IMG/VR virus record: IMGVR_UViG_2778261420_000023
Source: a virus
Taxonomy: Duplodnaviria; Heunggongvirae; Uroviricota; Caudoviricetes
Length of the DNA stretch: 14,121 bases
Strand: one strand, 5' to 3'
The position numbers and the translations under genes were made by a program. Of the stretch, positions 5,223 through 14,121 are shown in pieces. Below the pieces are notes generated by a model that saw only the letters and a list, made by a program, of their open reading frames with translations, did not search any database and had not been told where the DNA came from. Position 1 is the first letter of the stretch; every line of letters begins with the position of its first letter.

Positions 5223-6368
5223 TTACTTGCCAGCCTGAATTTCCAGAATCTTGATGGCGTTCGAATCCACCACACCACCGCCCAGATATTTCTGGGTATA
5301 GATGTTAATGAATCCAGGCTCGCTGAAATCCGGACGGGTACGCGTACCGGTTTTATGGTCAACGATGAAATAACCGCGCTTAAAGTCACCGACTGCAATC
5401 ACACCGTCTGGCATAAATTCCAGATATTCAACCGGAAGCCCCAGCAGAGAATCAGGATCACCAGCCTGTAAACGATCGCGCCAGATGTAATCACCAGTGG
5501 CATTTTTCAGTTTTTGTGCGGAGGCGGCTGTATTTGAGTTCATCACCCATACAGCTTTTTTGCGGTACTTATTGCGCAGCGTAAATTTCAGGTCAATCAG
5601 CATATCGGCGCTGAGACTGCCAGTCACTTTTTTCGTCTGGAGCGTACCGAAAGGACGGGTTTTGTCATTATCCGTAGCGCGCGGGAAAGTCAGGAAACCT
5701 TTGGCTTTTTTCTCGCCATCACCGGAAACCAGATCCGTTTCTTCGGTATCAACGAAAGTGTCGCCAATTTCAGAAGATAACCAGCCCATAATATCGACTT
5801 CGGAAAAATCGATAATTTCCTGAGTGGTTTTCGGGTAAGCGTAGATCGGATACAGGCGGATACTGACTTCATTCAGTTTTGGGGTTGCCGTCTGGTTACG
5901 TGCCGCACCTTCTTCGCCGTGTCCCACGACCGCACCCCCGGCAGAAACCAGTTGCTTAAATTCATTACTGTGAATGGTTTTAACAGTACAGATTTTACGC
6001 ATCACCGACTCATCAGAAAGCTGACGCATAATTTCTCTGTTCAGTTCCGGGATAACCGTATAACCACCATCTGCCGGAACACTGCCGGACAGGTTGCGGG
6101 TTTCCCCGGTCAGAATGTAAGAGCGTAGCTCATTTTTGGTGATTTTATCTTCGACGGGAACACCAGGCTGGTTACGTTCTTCATCAGCCACAGACTCGAG
6201 GCGGGAAATTTCTGTGTCGAGGGAATCGGCTTTTGCACGCAGTTCATCAAACTGTTTGCCTTCGTCATCGGTTAGACTGCGGTTTTCACTGTCGGCTTTT
6301 TCCAGCAGGGATCGCATCTGGTTTTTCAGGGCGGTTTTTTGCTGGCGGAGTTCGATTAATTTCTTCAT
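5223..6368 (-). CDS. Major capsid protein (HK97 fold) with N-terminal delta/scaffold-like domain
   Basis: 381 aa; coiled-coil-like N-terminus (ELRQQKTALKNQMRSLLEKAD...ELRAKADSLDTEISRLESV) followed by a body typical of HK97-family capsids. ATG at 6368. Confidence 0.88.
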   Translation of the reverse strand: MKKLIELRQQKTALKNQMRSLLEKADSENRSLTDDEGKQFDELRAKADSLDTEISRLESVADEERNQPGVPVEDKITKNELRSYILTGETRNLSGSVPADGGYTVIPELNREIMRQLSDESVMRKICTVKTIHSNEFKQLVSAGGAVVGHGEEGAARNQTATPKLNEVSIRLYPIYAYPKTTQEIIDFSEVDIMGWLSSEIGDTFVDTEETDLVSGDGEKKAKGFLTFPRATDNDKTRPFGTLQTKKVTGSLSADMLIDLKFTLRNKYRKKAVWVMNSNTAASAQKLKNATGDYIWRDRLQAGDPDSLLGLPVEYLEFMPDGVIAVGDFKRGYFIVDHKTGTRTRPDFSEPGFINIYTQKYLGGGVVDSNAIKILEIQAGK

Positions 6369-6641: not shown

Positions 6642-6890
6642 TTATTGTTTCACTGGCTCCCGCATTCTGCGTCTTATTTTCCACAAATATTCGATCATCG
6701 CTTCCACCTGCTCACGGTTGGTTGCGAAAATTTCCCCGGTCAGTGAGCTACGCAGAAAATCATGATGATCCACAAAAAATAACGCATCGGAAGAAAGCAA
6801 CCGACGATATTTTTTTGCTGTCGTGGTTTCCAGATCATCAAAACCATGAAGCTTTTTATGTTGCTGAACTTCTTCAAATGTCACTGGCAT
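6642..6890 (-). CDS. Hypothetical protein
   Basis: 82-aa ORF; ATG at 6890 preceded by AAGGGGGA SD; overlaps the 3' end of the ProQ/FinO-like gene by 10 nt. Confidence 0.5.
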   Translation of the reverse strand: MPVTFEEVQQHKKLHGFDDLETTTAKKYRRLLSSDALFFVDHHDFLRSSLTGEIFATNREQVEAMIEYLWKIRRRMREPVKQ

Positions 6891-7423
6891 GTATCCCCCT
6901 TTGCTGCCCGGCGCTGGCGCTTGTGCTTCTCATTCAGCACCATCAGCCGTGTTTCTGCCTCCTGCTGTTCCTGTGGTGTCACTTCCCCACATGGCTGGCC
7001 TTTCAGGTCGTAACGTGCGCCACCAGCTATCAGGGCGCGGTAATAGCGCGGAGACTGCGCATAGGATGCCAGCGTCGCACGTAATACCCCCGACCCGAAT
7101 GCCAGCCCCCTGACGGCGATATCCTGCATCAGGTCGTCGAATATCCCCACCTTAAGCGGCTTCGGTGCTTTATGGCTGAATAAGTCAGGCCACATCTCAG
7201 TGAGGCGGTTAACGCGTCGGCGGTTTTTGCGCTGCCTTTTGGTCATATGCTGCCACGGTGTCGCCCCTGCGGTCTTCTGTTTGCGGCTCTGCTGTGCGTT
7301 CTGATTATCGGGTATCACTTTATGCGCCGATGTGGTTTTATCCTGCTCTTGCGCCGCCTGCGTCGTTTTCTGCGGCGTGCCGTAAATGCCTTTCGGCTTC
7401 CGGTTAATGGTCAGCGTTGTCAT
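6881..7423 (-). CDS. ProQ/FinO-domain RNA-binding protein (RNA chaperone-like)
   Basis: PKPLKVGIFDDLMQDIA...LRATLASYAQSPRYYRALIAGGARYDLKGQPCGEV aligns by eye with the E. coli ProQ N-terminal FinO domain (PLKIGIFQDL...LRSALRLYTSSWRYL...RVDLDGNPCGEL). Basic N- and C-terminal extensions. ATG at 7423 with GGGGGAAGG SD. Confidence 0.75.
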   Translation of the reverse strand: MTTLTINRKPKGIYGTPQKTTQAAQEQDKTTSAHKVIPDNQNAQQSRKQKTAGATPWQHMTKRQRKNRRRVNRLTEMWPDLFSHKAPKPLKVGIFDDLMQDIAVRGLAFGSGVLRATLASYAQSPRYYRALIAGGARYDLKGQPCGEVTPQEQQEAETRLMVLNEKHKRQRRAAKGDTCQ

Positions 7424-7459
7424 GCCTTCCCCCGTAATTACTCTGTTCGCTGTTGTGAA

Positions 7460-7885
7460 TTAAAACGGTATGTTATCCCCGTACGGGTCATCGTGCTGGC
7501 TTGTCTGTTGTTTTGCCCTGTTCAGTGCGTCAGTGGCCTGGCCCTGTTGACCTTTTTTGCCGCCCGGTCGCGCCGTTCGCGCACTGATTACGCTGTCTGC
7601 AATAACCTGCCAGCCCTGCCGCGTTTCCCCGTTCTGGCCTGTCCACTGGCTCACCTGCATGTTACCCGCCACGCTCACCAGTTCGCCTTTGTGGTGTTTT
7701 GCCAGTGCGTCGGCCTGTCTGCCAAACGCCAGGACAGATAACCACATCGTCGCCGTTCCGTCATCTGCCTGGCTGCACGGCAGGGGAACCGCCATACTCG
7801 CCATCGCCATTTGTGTCCCTTTGCTGGTGGTCTTTAACTGCGGGTCAGCCACCAGCCGCCCGTAAGCCGCTATCTGTGCTGTCAT
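7460..7885 (-). CDS. Single-stranded DNA-binding protein-like (divergent SSB)
   Basis: OB-fold-like pattern (IAAYGRLVADPQLK...WLSVLAFGRQADALAKHHKGELVSVAGNMQVSQWTGQNGETRQGWQVIAD) parallels E. coli SSB, with a Gly/Gln-rich linker and acidic C-terminal DNIPF tail (compare DDDIPF). ATG at 7885 with GGAGAA SD. Confidence 0.65.
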   Translation of the reverse strand: MTAQIAAYGRLVADPQLKTTSKGTQMAMASMAVPLPCSQADDGTATMWLSVLAFGRQADALAKHHKGELVSVAGNMQVSQWTGQNGETRQGWQVIADSVISARTARPGGKKGQQGQATDALNRAKQQTSQHDDPYGDNIPF

Positions 7886-7949
7886 GCTGTCTGTTCTCCG
7901 GTTTTAACGTTGATTGTTACGCTTGTTTACACCCTTACGGTGAAATTCT

Positions 7950-8072
7950 GCGGGTTATAATCGCACTTTTGCGGGTTATAACTGCCGTTTTGCGGGTTAC
8001 GTGCGGGTTATTGATTTCCTTTTTATTCATGCAGTTAATGCACTTATACACAGGATAACCCGCATAACCCGC
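7950..8072. repeat. Candidate replication origin: four direct GCGGGTTA iterons, an AT-rich spacer and two inverted copies
   Basis: Direct copies start at 7950, 7971, 7992 and 8003 (21/21/11-bp spacing); AT-rich 8011-8050; inverted ATAACCCGC at 8055-8063 and 8064-8072. Immediately 3' of the primase/helicase gene. Confidence 0.6.
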
Positions 8073-8095
8073 AACTTTTTACATCACACAGGGGG

Positions 8096-10219
8096 TTAAT
8101 CTTCTGCCTCAGGCTGGAACATCAGCACGTAAAAAACATGCTGCTTCCCCCCAATTTTGCTGAGCGCCTTTTTCTTGTAACGGCGGTCGTTCCCCTTTTC
8201 CAGCATCCCCGCCGCATCAAGCGCTCTTGCAAAATGCGACGGGTTAAATCCCTGTGCGATCTCACCTTCAAACACATGCGGGAACGTGTAAAAACGGAAC
8301 TCGTCATCTTCGTTTCTGATACTCCCCTTTCTGTATCCGGCAAGTTCTTTAATCGGTAAATCACGCTCGTCGGTGTTGGGCCACGGAAGGTATCTGCTGA
8401 ATCCGAACGACGCTAAAAAAGCCTCTGCCTGTTCAACCATCTGTTTAAATTCCCTGTTACCCGTGCCGAACTCCTTCACCCAGGCATTAAAATTATGCTG
8501 TATGGCATCGCGGCACGCCTGAACATCCCAGCCAGTAATATGACCGGACAACACTAACGCCGCCTCAAGCATGGCAAATCGCTCCCCCACACGGTGAACC
8601 TGTTCGCCGTAGCTCTCCGGTATCAGGTTGCGCCACCGTTCACGGCATGCCCTTACCGTGTCCTTTGCTTCCTGCTGGTGGTTTGCCAGCCATTTAACCC
8701 ACTCTCGACCCGCCGCCCCGTGATTTTCTGTCCAGGCATCCTTTAACGCGTCTGCGTGCGCCTTTCCGGTGCTGTATTCGTGAAACTGCGTGGCTTTTTC
8801 CATCGGCACGTTAAGCAGGCGGACAAGCTGCCCCGCCTTGACTTTTATCCCCTCCGTTTTGAGGAATGTTTCAACGTCCATTTCTCCGGTGCTGATTGCC
8901 ACCGTGCGCCAGTGTTTGATCTCCCTGTTGCCGCCGTCCTTCGCCCCCTGTAATTTCCCCGAACCGTTAAACAGCGTATAGGCTGACGTGGACACCTCCC
9001 GCGCGTTTCCGGCCTGACCTATTTCATCCAGGGGTAACAGCCCGTCATTATGCGCTTCGGCCTCGTTGGCGATACCTAACGCCGTGCCGTACCAGGTCAG
9101 CCGTTGTGCGTCCGGCTCTCCCCATAAACTGGATGCGATGTTCTGTGTGGTGGTTTTCCCTGCCGATGACTGTTCGAAAAGATGTACCCCGAAGCCGTCA
9201 GCCCCCACCAGCCCGATTAATGGTGCGGATAACGATACCGCCACACCCAGCATCATGGACGGATTACCACCAGCCAGCCGCGCCACGGTATCGCGCCAAC
9301 CCTCCGCCGTTCCTGCCACGGAATAGCCATTAACAGCAGCCGTTTTTCCGGTAAACAGGGCTGGCTTTTCGCAATCACCAATGACCGAACCGTCCGGCAT
9401 GATGTACGCGCCAAAATGCCAGCCCGTTGTTGTGCTTAACTGCCATTCCTCATGGCTTCCGCTTAACTGCATCCAGTCAGCCAGGATAGCCCTGTATTTG
9501 CCGTTAGTTGTTACGTTCAGTCCGTGGTCTTTCAGCAGCCGCCAGCCGTCACGGTCGCCAATGCCACCGCACGGAACCGCCATTGTGATGACTTCATGGT
9601 TTGCTAATTTTTTCCAGCGCATCACGCGGTAATGCTCTTTACCGATTGTTCCCGTTCCCAGTAGTTCAAGCGGGGAACATAACCACGTCTCAGGCCGGAT
9701 AATTTCGCCTGACTGCTTATCCACTTTTGGCGTTACCCAGAAAACACCATCGGCGCGACTTTCAACGCGGGGCTTTAATTCATCATCGCCCTGGCTTTCT
9801 GTAATTTTTTTCTTTAAAGGCAACACCAGACTTTCCCCGCGCTCGTATTCGTCTTTGAGGCGAGGCAACTGGTCGGATAAATCCGCCGGGCTGGTGTCAG
9901 TTATCCCCGCGTATTCGTATACGGTCTTCACGCCAGCCACAGCCAGCAACGTGACGATCTGTGTAAGGCTACGTTCAGTGATGTGCCCTGCGCGGTAAAT
10001 ACGCACACACTGACGGCTATCATCAATAATTTGATAACCGGTAATATCTTTCAGGTGTTCATCTGACAGAACGACAGGTGGCACATTGTCGGCGGCAATA
10101 TGCTTACCTGCCCATTCCTGCCACTCTTTCGCATGGCTCCACGCATCACTACCTGCAAAGATGATTACCTCCGTCATTTTGTCGGCTGGCTGGTGCTTTA
10201 AGTTTGGTGCGCGCTTCAT
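8096..10219 (-). CDS. Primase/helicase-like replication initiator with P-loop NTPase domain
   Basis: 707 aa; Walker A (EQSSAGKTTTQ) and Walker B-like (GLLPLDEIGQ) motifs; N-terminal region may be a toprim/primase-type domain (EVIIFAGSDAW, unverified). ATG at 10219 overlaps the upstream stop (ATGA). Confidence 0.75.
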   Translation of the reverse strand: MKRAPNLKHQPADKMTEVIIFAGSDAWSHAKEWQEWAGKHIAADNVPPVVLSDEHLKDITGYQIIDDSRQCVRIYRAGHITERSLTQIVTLLAVAGVKTVYEYAGITDTSPADLSDQLPRLKDEYERGESLVLPLKKKITESQGDDELKPRVESRADGVFWVTPKVDKQSGEIIRPETWLCSPLELLGTGTIGKEHYRVMRWKKLANHEVITMAVPCGGIGDRDGWRLLKDHGLNVTTNGKYRAILADWMQLSGSHEEWQLSTTTGWHFGAYIMPDGSVIGDCEKPALFTGKTAAVNGYSVAGTAEGWRDTVARLAGGNPSMMLGVAVSLSAPLIGLVGADGFGVHLFEQSSAGKTTTQNIASSLWGEPDAQRLTWYGTALGIANEAEAHNDGLLPLDEIGQAGNAREVSTSAYTLFNGSGKLQGAKDGGNREIKHWRTVAISTGEMDVETFLKTEGIKVKAGQLVRLLNVPMEKATQFHEYSTGKAHADALKDAWTENHGAAGREWVKWLANHQQEAKDTVRACRERWRNLIPESYGEQVHRVGERFAMLEAALVLSGHITGWDVQACRDAIQHNFNAWVKEFGTGNREFKQMVEQAEAFLASFGFSRYLPWPNTDERDLPIKELAGYRKGSIRNEDDEFRFYTFPHVFEGEIAQGFNPSHFARALDAAGMLEKGNDRRYKKKALSKIGGKQHVFYVLMFQPEAED

Positions 10220-10990: not shown

Positions 10991-11192
10991 GTCTCACCCC
11001 CTGAATATTCGCGTTAATCATTCCGGCACGTTCTGCGAGTTCCTGTAATGATTCCCTTGTTGCGACAATGGCTTCATCTGGCAGGTGGTAATTACACACC
11101 ACGCGACCTTTATCCACATTGACCAGTAGCTGCCCGGTAAATTTCTCACGAAACTGAACGCGGTTAAGGTCGGTAAGTGACAGGTTAATCAT
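10980..11192 (-). CDS. Hypothetical small protein
   Basis: Start placed at ATG 11192 (MINLSLTDLN...), preceded by GGGGGAAG SD; 8-nt overlap (ATGATTAA) with the upstream ORF stop. Confidence 0.45.
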   Translation of the reverse strand: MINLSLTDLNRVQFREKFTGQLLVNVDKGRVVCNYHLPDEAIVATRESLQELAERAGMINANIQGVRHVQ

Positions 11193-11388
11193 GGTCTTCC
11201 CCCTGGCGAATACGGGCAGCAAATACCATCACGCAGCCATCAGGAGATTGCTGACGCGCTTCCTGTTCGCTGGTGGCCTCAATGGTAATCACGCGCGGTT
11301 GTGCCGTGCTCAGGGCGATAAAACGCCAGATGTATTTATTCAGGTTGTACGAGTCCCGCCCTTGCGGGTGTCTGGTATAATTTCTCAT
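11185..11388 (-). CDS. Hypothetical small protein, first gene of the leftward operon
   Basis: 67-aa C-terminal segment of the long track ORF, starting at ATG 11388 with GAGG SD 6-7 nt upstream; the rest of the 370-aa ORF is judged spurious. Confidence 0.35.
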   Translation of the reverse strand: MRNYTRHPQGRDSYNLNKYIWRFIALSTAQPRVITIEATSEQEARQQSPDGCVMVFAARIRQGEDHD

Positions 11389-11464
11389 AGCTGCCTCGAT
11401 ACGCTTTCTATCGTTGGTGGTTAGACGCCCTGCATGTGTGCCACCACTGCGGGGCGTTGTTGTT

Positions 11465-11514
11465 TGGTGCATTGCACCATTCGGTTTTAACCTATCAATA
11501 AGTGAATCGCACTT
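11465..11514. promoter_or_regulatory. Palindromic operator-like sites in the divergent control region
   Basis: TGGTGCA-T-TGCACCA (11465-11479) and AAGTG-AATCG-CACTT (11500-11514); the core TGAATCGCAC recurs at 11548-11557 overlapping a TATACT -10-like hexamer (11543-11548) upstream of the plus-strand RHH gene. Confidence 0.5.
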
Positions 11515-11578
11515 CAAGCCTTTCTCTGAAATTTTTTTTGTGTATACTGAATCGCACCAACTTAGAGAGGATTCAGTA

Positions 11579-11758
11579 ATGGCAACAGGTTCAACAAATA
11601 ATAAGTCGCAACAGTTAAATGCCAGATTCCCGCATGATGTTGTTGCAGACTTAGAAAAAAATTTAGATGAAGGTGAAAGCAAGGCGCAATTTATAGTTAC
11701 TGCCGTTAAAGGTGAGATCAAACGCCGCCAGCGCCGCAAGGCCAAAGAGCAGGAGTAA
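11579..11758 (+). CDS. Small ribbon-helix-helix-like DNA-binding protein (candidate repressor/switch protein)
   Basis: 59 aa (MATGSTNNKSQQLNARFPHDVVADLEKNLDEGESKAQFIVTAVKGEIKRRQRRKAKEQE): beta-strand-then-helices pattern typical of Arc/MetJ/CopG proteins, basic tail. ATG at 11579 with GAGAGG SD 8 nt upstream. One of only two plus-strand genes called. Confidence 0.5.
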   Translation: MATGSTNNKSQQLNARFPHDVVADLEKNLDEGESKAQFIVTAVKGEIKRRQRRKAKEQE

Positions 11759-11815
11759 CCATCACCAGCGCCGTGGTGTAAGGTATTACGGCGCATTGCT
11801 ATGCAGGACAACACA

Positions 11816-11989
11816 ATGACCGATAAAGAATTGACCAAAACATTATCACCGACACGGAAAAGACGGCGCAGAAAGATAGAGCATGAATCAGAAAGATTCG
11901 CGCCATGTGCTTTTGCCCTTGAGCAATTCCTTAAAGAGTACAGGGAAAAGCGCTCATTGCAGGTATGGCAACGAACTGAACCAGACTGA
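11816..11989 (+). CDS. Hypothetical small basic protein
   Basis: 57 aa from ATG 11816 (AGGA 8 nt upstream), downstream of the RHH gene and upstream of a plus-strand terminator; no motif recognised. Confidence 0.3.
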   Translation: MTDKELTKTLSPTRKRRRRKIEHESERFAPCAFALEQFLKEYREKRSLQVWQRTEPD

Positions 11990-12055
11990 TTGCATTGCCC
12001 ACCAGCCGCAAATGTGGCATTGTTGGTGATGCTTTTGTTTTCCCTTGTTCCCACT

Positions 12056-12085
12056 GGCGACCCTTTTGCGGTCGCCTTTGTTTTG
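12056..12085 (+). terminator. Rho-independent terminator of the short plus-strand unit
   Basis: GGCGACC-cttttgc-GGTCGCC stem-loop (12056-12076) followed by TTTGTTTTG. Confidence 0.55.
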
Positions 12086-12122
12086 CCTGTTATCCGGCAA
12101 TAGTGGCGCTTCACCACACGGT

Positions 12123-12208
12123 TGATATAATTCCCCTGCACTGATCCATTTTTTTCGCAGCAGGTTAATTGTTCAGAAAGGCGGTTCCTTATCGGGGCCG
12201 CTTTTTTT
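12123..12208 (+). ncRNA. Candidate small RNA unit: extended -10 promoter plus intrinsic terminator with no ORF between
   Basis: TGATATAAT at 12123-12131 matches extended -10 consensus TGnTATAAT; an 8-bp-stem hairpin (12181-12201, two G.U pairs) is followed by seven T (12202-12208). Predicted transcript about 70 nt, antisense to read-through from alpA. Confidence 0.3.
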
Positions 12209-12349
12209 ATGCCTGAAAATACCCGATAACATGGCTTTTTAGTTTCACCAGGACGAACGAAGCCCCGCCCCTGTTCGGGCGTATATCCAGTATTCATGGT
12301 TAGATCTCTGTGTTAGTGGATGGGTGGCGGCGGTGCGCCGCCAGCCTGA

Positions 12350-12570: not shown

Positions 12571-12600
12571 GGTGTCTTATTGTGTCGTATTGTTCCCGCT
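12571..12600. promoter_or_regulatory. Three 10-bp-phased TGTSTC/TTGTTCC repeats 18-47 bp upstream of the alpA start codon
   Basis: ggtgtcttat / tgtgtcgtat / tgttcccgct; same motif family as the arrays at 12811-12870 and 6563-6589. Confidence 0.45.
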
Positions 12601-12810
12601 AGAGTGATGAATGGCAAATATTGGTGACGGTCGTTTTACAGATATGGGGTAATTAGAATAAAAATACTTTTAATTCATTGTGATGTAGTAGCGTAAAATT
12701 TTGCTTTTACGCCTTTTTTACATATTTTTAAGAGTGATTCGCCAGTGTATAAAAAAACAGTATACATATAAAAATCAAATGGTTATGAATGAGTTTGATT
12801 TTTAATCCGC

Positions 12811-12870
12811 TTGTCCCATTTTGTTCCTTGTTGTTCGTCGTTGTGTCTCGTTGTTCCACGTTGTGTCCGT
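12811..12870. repeat. Six tandem degenerate 10-bp units (TTGTYCNNNN) just 3' of the integrase stop
   Basis: ttgtcccatt / ttgttccttg / ttgttcgtcg / ttgtgtctcg / ttgttccacg / ttgtgtccgt, exact 10-bp register. Confidence 0.6.
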
Positions 12871-12891
12871 TCTGAAAAATCACGAAAAAAA

Positions 12892-14121
12892 TTATATTTC
12901 TCTGGCTATTGGCAGTGTGGTTACGTTTTCGTGAGTACCTGCCAGTATCTCTAACCGCTCTGTCCACATGTCCAGCGCATTACGTTTCGCATCGAGATAA
13001 CGGGAGTGGTTATAGACTCGCTGCATCCCTGGCATCTGGTGAGCGGTGAGTTGTTCGACAATATGCGGATCCACGCCTAAATCATTCAGCATCGTGGTAA
13101 ACGTGCGCCGTATATCGTGTAGTGACCAGTGCGGATGGTTTAATTTTTTGTGCGTGAATCTGCCGTATTGCGACACGCTGGCTTCCTGTTTCAGTTCCCC
13201 GAGTAATAGCCCTGTGTGTCGGTTCTGCTCCACCAGCCGTGTGACGAACGGTAAAATGCTTTCCGGTATTGGCCTGAATATGGCTACCTTCGTTTTGCTG
13301 TGCTCCTTCGGTACTGTCCAGAGCATTTCCTTAAAATCCCACTCCCTGATCTCCGACAGCCTCAGTTCTCCGGTTCGGCAACCAAACACAATCAGGAGGC
13401 GGATTAGTGCGCTGTAGTAGGGCGGGAATATTTTTTTATCCAGCGCCTGTAATAATTCGCCCAGTTCTTTGTTACTAAGCACGCGTTCGCTTATGCCTGG
13501 TTTTTTACCAACGTCCACCACGTTGAGATCATCCAGAGCGTTACTGACGGCATAGCGGCGTTTACGACAGAATTTAAGCGCCTGTTTGCACGCCTGCATC
13601 ATGTGACCAGACGTTACGGGGGATTTTTTGCGTATCCGGTCAAAACAGGCCAGCCAGTGACGTAATTCGCATTTATCCAGTGGCATGTTACCGATGTGCT
13701 GTATGACGTGATTATTCAGGCGACTTTTCAGGCATACATAATCGACACGGTTTTCCTTTACGTGCGTTTCCAGCCAGTAACTGATCGCATCGCCAACCGT
13801 TACGGGTTTTAACGCTTCCTGCACAGTGTAGTTCAGTTCATGACGTGGGTTTTTCCCTTCTGCCAGCCATGCACGACACTTTGCGGCTTTTTCCCTGGCT
13901 GCTTTAAGGCTCAGATCGGGATAGTTTCCCAGCTTCAGACGTTCCGGTGTGGTATCCCTTCCCGTTCCAGCCCTGTAGGTGAAGTACCAGGTCAATTTAC
14001 CTGATGTTAAATATTTCACGCTCAGATTACCGCCATCGCTATAGAACGTATTTTTCTCCGCTGGCTTACCATAAAGTTTTCTTAACAATGTATCGTTCAG
14101 TTTGTTAAGCGCTCTGCTCAC
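12892..14121 (-). CDS. int: Tyrosine site-specific integrase, P4-type with N-terminal arm-binding domain
   Basis: 409 aa; N-terminus resembles the DUF4102 arm-binding region of CP4-57 IntA; catalytic signature present (GCRTGELR, HDIRRT, LTAHQ, RVYNHSRYL). The start is GTG at 14121..14119 on the window edge, so the true start may lie beyond the window. Confidence 0.88.
   Translation of the reverse strand: MSRALNKLNDTLLRKLYGKPAEKNTFYSDGGNLSVKYLTSGKLTWYFTYRAGTGRDTTPERLKLGNYPDLSLKAAREKAAKCRAWLAEGKNPRHELNYTVQEALKPVTVGDAISYWLETHVKENRVDYVCLKSRLNNHVIQHIGNMPLDKCELRHWLACFDRIRKKSPVTSGHMMQACKQALKFCRKRRYAVSNALDDLNVVDVGKKPGISERVLSNKELGELLQALDKKIFPPYYSALIRLLIVFGCRTGELRLSEIREWDFKEMLWTVPKEHSKTKVAIFRPIPESILPFVTRLVEQNRHTGLLLGELKQEASVSQYGRFTHKKLNHPHWSLHDIRRTFTTMLNDLGVDPHIVEQLTAHQMPGMQRVYNHSRYLDAKRNALDMWTERLEILAGTHENVTTLPIAREI

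Follow-up and report, generated by a model that had tools for sequence, protein, structure and literature searches.

The repeat array at positions 7949-8073 of the window (the whole 14,121-bp stretch of DNA that was analysed) is very probably the vegetative replication origin of a capsid-forming PICI (cf-PICI) located in yifB/comM of E. coli, where it would be used by a DUF927 Rep protein of 707 amino acids. This reading, which comes from sequence comparison, is well supported because Rep homology, the published rule for such islands and three independent comparative tests all bear on it. An earlier note on this DNA had already interpreted the array as an origin, and Rep homology, the published layout, the conservation of the repeats and their co-variation with the Rep C-terminal domain (CTD) each speak for that interpretation. 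Given that the layout matches published PICI and SaPI origins, the origin is of an already known kind, and the new points are modest: a strictly conserved geometry, a specificity that natural domain swaps appear to map to the last ~110 residues of Rep, the lack of a recognisable primase domain and a conserved DnaA box.

The whole window has an identical counterpart in the chromosome of E. coli E700025, where an island of ~15 kb splits yifB/comM. Inspection of the island reveals genes for an integrase, an HTH/AlpA-like regulator and Icd-like, DUF4222, DUF927, SSB and ProQ/FinO proteins, together with genes for a major capsid protein, a prohead protease, a portal, a head-tail connector, an HNH protein, TerS and TerL. 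The annotation of this identical locus thus contains what defines a PICI, namely an integrase, an AlpA-type regulator, rep, unidirectional genes and a specific att site, and on its gene content the element is assigned as an E. coli cf-PICI in yifB/comM. The O157:H7 island (L002) has the same gene order and is sited next to roxA/pepT. EcCIEDL933, which represents the O157:H7 island type, has been described as the prototype capsid-forming PICI (bioRxiv 10.1101/2022.09.08.507074), in a report where iterons are not mentioned and no origin is mapped.

The features of the replication module are as follows, with coordinates in the window.

7460-7885, - strand: ssb, which follows rep in the replication module (Pfam SSB, E 4e-16)
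7949-7957, + strand: distal iteron 1, TGCGGGTTA, the farthest from rep (exact copy; invariant in 8 E. coli variants)
7970-7978, + strand: distal iteron 2, 21 bp past iteron 1 (exact copy)
7991-7999, + strand: distal iteron 3, 21 bp past iteron 2 (exact copy)
8002-8010, + strand: distal iteron 4, 11 bp past iteron 3 (exact copy)
8011-8055, no strand: AT-rich spacer of 45 bp, 69% A+T, the presumed strand-opening site (composition and nearest-neighbour stability)
8044-8052, + strand: DnaA-box consensus TTATACACA in the spacer, 3 nt from the proximal iterons (read from the sequence)
8056-8064, - strand: proximal iteron, inverted (exact copy)
8065-8073, - strand: second proximal iteron, inverted, 9 bp from the other (exact copy)
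8096-10219, - strand: rep, a DUF927 initiator-helicase of the SaPIbov1 Rep / Cch family (Pfam DUF927, E 1.4e-45)
8099-8419, - strand: C-terminal domain, Rep residues about 601-707, the inferred determinant of iteron specificity (domain swap, co-variation)

Six exact copies of the octamer GCGGGTTA occur in the 14,121-bp window, and all fall within 7950-8072, four on the + strand (7950, 7971, 7992 and 8003) and two on the - strand (8056-8063 and 8065-8072). By chance 0.50 copies would be expected (sd 0.77), and in 200 shuffles that preserved dinucleotides the count never came to six. These exact positions bear out the earlier description of four direct copies at 21/21/11 bp and two inverted copies, where the + strand spacings correspond to two, two and one helical turns. 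Two details of that description required correction. The full repeated unit spans 9-10 nt, TGCGGGTTA(T), rather than 8 nt, with + strand starts at 7949, 7970, 7991 and 8002, and the AT-rich spacer, although real, measures 45 bp rather than ~40 bp. Across 7940-8080 the sequence reads ...cTGCGGGTTAtaatcgcacttt TGCGGGTTAtaactgccgtttTGCGGGTTAcgTGCGGGTTAt-(45 bp)-aTAACCCGCATAACCCGCAa..., and no second iteron cluster was found anywhere in the window. Copies with one mismatch lie at 6095, 7839 and 10278, which is the level expected by chance. The 7839 copy was a candidate for a seventh site but was discarded: it belongs to ssb coding sequence and is placed outside the array because the same coding sequence is present in an E. 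albertii locus (L007) whose iterons differ.

The array occupies most of a gap of 210 bp that separates the SSB gene, which starts at 7885, from the 707-aa gene, which stops at 8096; both genes are on the - strand. It begins 22-23 nt from the rep stop codon, in agreement with its earlier placement directly 3' of the initiator gene. A scan of 7400-8600 for promoters and terminators found no promoter-like site, and the terminator-like sites lay outside the gap and were no commoner than in shuffles; neither kind of site was found in 7886-8095. A reading of the array as an autonomous promoter or operator is therefore without support, and ssb is probably read through from rep across the origin. At gathering thresholds, Rfam gave no match in the window.

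To describe the presumed initiator, sequence and structure searches were performed with the 707-aa Rep. Its sequence matches PDB 8tch_A (E 1.8e-14, residues 213-599) and also 5dgk_A, as well as the NCBIfam model for the SCCmec Cch helicase. The 8tch entry is deposited as 'Initiation of replication protein with helicase activity encoded by Pathogenicity Island SaPIBov1'. When the AlphaFold model of Rep, which is poor overall (mean pLDDT 56; below 50 in the ATPase domain and in the CTD), was searched against the PDB using Foldseek, the only significant matches were again 5dgk (Cch, E 1.4e-8) and 8tch (E 4.8e-7). The Walker A residues G354, K355 and T356 and the Walker B residues D398 and E399 are invariant in 39 homologues. 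Rep had previously been called a primase/helicase, and the helicase half of that name agrees with the 8tch/Cch homology. The primase half does not hold up, as there is no recognisable primase domain and residues 1-162 have no Pfam match even at E values up to 10; Rep is thus better described as an initiator-helicase than as a demonstrable primase/helicase.

The N-terminal part of Rep varies among its relatives. In several of them (e.g. L015), a primase module of Zn_Ribbon_Prim and Toprim_3 replaces the N-terminal domain, and the presence of this Zn-ribbon and Toprim primase in other relatives suggests that the N-terminal domain is exchanged without regard to the helicase and CTD. The N-terminal ~130 residues of the window Rep are also found in the otherwise unrelated P4-type Pri-Rep of EcCICFT073 (L006 9242-9640), where identity is strong over roughly the first 100 residues (window 9740-10219 encodes Rep residues 1-160). 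AlphaFold predicts residues 17-130 as a confident alpha/beta domain.

Published work on related islands provides the rule against which the array was compared. According to Fillol-Salom et al. 2018 (PMC6092414), PICI origins are situated directly 3' of the gene for the replication initiator, and in both Gram-negative PICI and SaPI origins two iteron sets flank an AT-rich region (PMC6092414, PMC9371898). A pri-rep-ori segment of EcCICFT073 maintains a plasmid, and maintenance is lost or reduced on deletion of rep or ori (PMC6092414). The SaPI origin lies directly downstream of rep and comprises six to twelve iterons with an AT-rich centre (Qiao et al. 2022, PMC9371898). Each side holds two or more iterons, and the two sides point in opposite directions; the winged helix of the SaPI Rep CTD recognises the iterons, and probably one hexamer is loaded per side (PMC9371898). 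The array in the window agrees with every sequence-level part of this published PICI/SaPI description, which is the sense in which its earlier likening to the rep-ori layout of phage satellites stands.

Inspection of the individual systems reveals where the likeness ends. EcCICFT073 shares host species and island type with the window element and carries two iteron sets round an AT-rich region 3' of rep, followed by ssb. Its Rep, in contrast, is a 584-aa protein of the P4-type primase family (TIGR01613) rather than DUF927, its iterons are GGTAGACAG-like, and its origin was shown in plasmids, whereas the window origin is a prediction from sequence. The window Rep is a homologue in both sequence and fold of SaPIbov1 Rep (8tch) and SCCmec Cch (5dgk), and SaPI origins, like that in the window, are adjacent to rep, with an AT-rich centre flanked on either side by two or more iterons, the two sides being oppositely oriented. 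Relative to the SaPIs, the window element has a Gram-negative host, iterons of 9-10 nt rather than 5-6 nt, an extra N-terminal domain of ~160 residues in Rep, a DnaA box in the spacer and capsids of its own making. The iteron plasmids pSC101, F, P1, R6K and RK2 (reviewed in PMC4980987) share with the window ~21-bp phased direct repeats, an AT-rich region and a DnaA box. They differ in that their initiator, of the Rep_3 winged-helix type, recruits DnaB, whereas the window encodes a homologue of self-loading helicases, and in that the window repeats are inverted across both sides of the AT-rich region. Within the window Rep, Pfam finds DUF927 alone and no Rep_3-type initiator.

Of the four published Pri-Rep alleles, three (those of CFT073, O42 and RM13514) are not DUF927 proteins. 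EcCIO42 has a RepA-type helicase with a AAGTGAGG-like motif downstream, while EcCIRM13514 has a primase-family Rep followed by the motif TGTTCACC (L029 8055-8330). That is to say, each type of PICI Rep has its own downstream motif, which suggests that the rep-iteron layout is general to these islands and that initiator/iteron pairs are interchangeable. We take TGTTCACC, the iteron downstream of EcCIRM13514 rep, to be the type I iteron of satellite phage P4. P4 is an enterobacterial phage satellite with two sites, ori and crr, and a multi-domain alpha protein whose C-terminal domain binds octamer-like iterons. The Zn-ribbon and Toprim primase module of P4 alpha is found in some relatives of the window Rep and not in the window Rep itself, whose helicase, unlike that of P4 alpha, is of the DUF927 / SaPIbov1 Rep / Cch family. 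The P4 type I iteron TGTTCACC also differs from the window iteron TGCGGGTTA, and P4 has two cis sites, where many relatives have two iteron clusters and the window has one.

Conservation was first considered within E. coli, where the 210-bp gap has matches in 252 genomes. Homology to the O157 type starts exactly at window position 7948, at the first iteron, and extends to the rep stop, and the genes beyond differ. The coincidence of this edge with the first iteron suggests that rep and the iterons travel as one module. Among eight E. coli variants, variation affects 11% of iteron columns (6/54), compared with 47% of inter-iteron columns and 70% of columns in the flanks, and the variable iteron columns are mostly those where one subtype carries an extra copy. 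Fisher tests on this conservation are indicative only, as the compared sequences are related.

Conservation across genera was addressed with a scan of one genome per species, which gave 20 loci encoding Rep relatives (56-87% identity) from Escherichia albertii, Winslowiella, Cedecea, Serratia, Rahnella, Pantoea, Yersinia, Citrobacter, Pectobacterium and others. Downstream sequence was available for 19 loci, and each of them has an 8-mer that recurs 4-12 times within 420 nt of the rep stop. The proximal set is present in all 19 relatives as two, sometimes three, copies 9 bp apart that start 22-31 nt past the rep stop, although in some relatives one proximal copy deviates from the exact core. 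All relatives have the AT-rich spacer in the same position, and their two sets start 53-66 nt apart. The distal copies are in opposite orientation at spacings of 11, 21 and 21 bp despite their other iteron sequences. Six iteron sequences were distinguished: TAACCCGCA (the window type), TAACCCAC, TGAACCACG, TGAACCAAC, a TGAACCG type and TGGGAYAAG.

Many relatives carry a second iteron unit downstream, while the window and several others have the first unit alone. The window origin, having one unit where many relatives have a second, could therefore be reduced or weaker. The second unit lies about +190 to +310 past the rep stop and consists of one copy, two inverted copies, an AT-rich stretch and 2-3 tandem copies (L002 8810-8965; also L008, L009, L012, L013, L016, L017, L020, L023 and L026). 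Its carriers include the O157 island of EcCIEDL933 type (L002), with which window homology ends at 7948.

Comparison of iterons with Rep sequences points to the part of Rep that would read them. The Rep of L007 (E. albertii) shares 99% identity with the window Rep in residues 1-150 and 96% in 151-590, and only 39% in 600-707; this natural swap has its breakpoint near residues 589-603 and is accompanied by iterons of sequence TGGGACAAG. The Reps of L002-L004 present the opposite case, with N-termini 46-52% identical to that of the window Rep, CTDs 90-96% identical and iterons identical to those of the window. Over all pairs, median CTD identity is 74% within an iteron class versus 44% between classes, whereas median identity of the helicase core is 71% both within and between classes. 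A change of one iteron base (G to A) accompanies a CTD of 67-68% identity. In these comparisons it is the last ~110 residues of Rep, and not the helicase core, with which the repeat class varies; this pattern is expected if those residues read the iterons.

Structural evidence on the CTD is less distinct. Nine of 20 diverse CTDs match the Pfam family HTH_56 'Cch helix turn helix', below threshold (E 1.7e-4). A separate AlphaFold model of the CTD (pLDDT 46) presents a helix-helix-hairpin pattern too uncertain for a winged-helix call, and a profile search of PDB sequences with the CTD returned chance matches only (E > 0.4).

The spacer at 8011-8055 is richer in A+T than the window as a whole (69% versus 49%), and only 0.8% of 45-bp windows have a nearest-neighbour stability as low. 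The int-alpA intergenic region (around 12634-12800) nonetheless has a lower stability than the spacer. The most AT-rich and least stable DNA of the window (12600-12900) is the gap between the genes for the integrase and the HTH (AlpA-like) regulator.

Within the spacer, TTATACACA at 8044-8052 fits the DnaA-box consensus TTATNCACA. The eight E. coli variants carry TTATACACA, TTATGCACA or TTATCCACA there, such that the box, TTAT(A/G/C)CACA, varies solely at the degenerate position, and the spacer outside it is strongly divergent between E. coli subtypes. Perfect DnaA boxes number four in first origin units versus 0.2 expected, and all four belong to the TGCGGGTTA class. One class-B relative has a box with one mismatch in the same place, and none was found in the remaining iteron classes, which come from other genera; family-wide, boxes with at most one mismatch are not enriched (6 observed versus 5.4 expected). 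We tentatively consider host DnaA as a co-factor of the E. coli TGCGGGTTA-class origins, an idea that on balance we doubt. The box may reflect a role of host DnaA in the TGCGGGTTA lineage or a lineage-specific accident. Were the former true, the origin would be a hybrid in which a self-loading, MCM-like initiator-helicase of a satellite acts jointly with the chromosomal initiator of the host or is gated by it. DnaA boxes are not mentioned in the PICI paper PMC6092414, and the co-factor idea was not found in the PICI literature searched. The main conclusion on the origin does not depend on the DnaA box.

Several other functions could be proposed for the repeats. They might be Rep sites of mainly regulatory function, serving as a roadblock or operator on read-through from rep into the ssb, capsid and packaging genes, in copy control by handcuffing or as an enhancer like P4 crr, with initiation taking place elsewhere. 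Rep bound to an array that lies between co-oriented genes and has no promoter or terminator of its own would indeed meet transcription, the second iteron cluster of relatives recalls the two-site ori/crr arrangement generally known from P4, and co-variation with the Rep CTD speaks for binding as such rather than for initiation in particular. We nevertheless regard a mainly regulatory role as unlikely: with a sole iteron cluster in the window, the island offers no alternative Rep-dependent origin, and two inverted sets round an AT-rich spacer form the layout needed for replication of EcCICFT073 and the SaPIs (PMC6092414, PMC9371898). A regulatory side-effect of the array is compatible with origin function.

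It is highly improbable that the repeats bind another regulator, whether AlpA-like, PerC-like or a host protein, or that they represent a non-functional local duplication. The 21-bp units do share flanking bases (family D2), as they would after tandem duplication, but the iteron cores are invariant while the spacers diverge, the geometry is kept across genera despite differing repeat sequences, and the repeats co-vary with the Rep CTD and not with neighbouring genes. The conservation pattern of the repeats thus excludes chance or neutral duplication. A recognition site (cos or pac) for packaging by the HNH-TerS-TerL machinery of the island is scarcely credible. The island encodes its own terminase and an HNH protein, and terminase small subunits often bind repeated sites; against this, the array is located >5 kb from terS, on the packaging side the O157 homology extends no further than the first iteron, and iteron class tracks the Rep CTD rather than the packaging genes. 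In addition, L004 has the same iterons and Rep CTD with no capsid or terminase genes in the 4 kb downstream of rep.

With the array read as an origin, a sequence of events can be proposed. Induction of the island by a helper phage would lead to its excision and to production of the 707-aa DUF927 Rep. The C-terminal ~110 residues of Rep are predicted to recognise the TGCGGGTTA iterons, four on one side at spacings of one or two helical turns and two on the opposite side, and Rep oligomers might then assemble on both sides of the spacer, as two-sided loading would entail. The 45-bp AT-rich spacer would presumably open, and Rep would load itself as the replicative helicase. The island SSB, encoded next, would coat the single strands, and host enzymes would probably prime and extend.

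This reading pinpoints the origin of a widespread cf-PICI lineage to 125 bp of sequence. It further predicts that ~110 residues of Rep set origin specificity, which would be useful for orthogonal PICI-based replicons or delivery vectors and would help explain the replication compatibility of several islands that share a cell. The current understanding of satellite replication is unchanged by these results.

Two minor observations concern other genes of the window. A listed ORF of 370 aa at 11185-12297 is probably no gene; the identical RefSeq locus has in this span two genes, one Icd-like and one of the YlcI/YnfO type on the other strand, and a truncated pseudogene. At 6881-7423, flanked by ssb and the capsid gene, lies a gene for an RNA chaperone of the ProQ/FinO family (180 aa, Pfam E 8.5e-24), and its placement is the same in L003 and EcCIRM13514.
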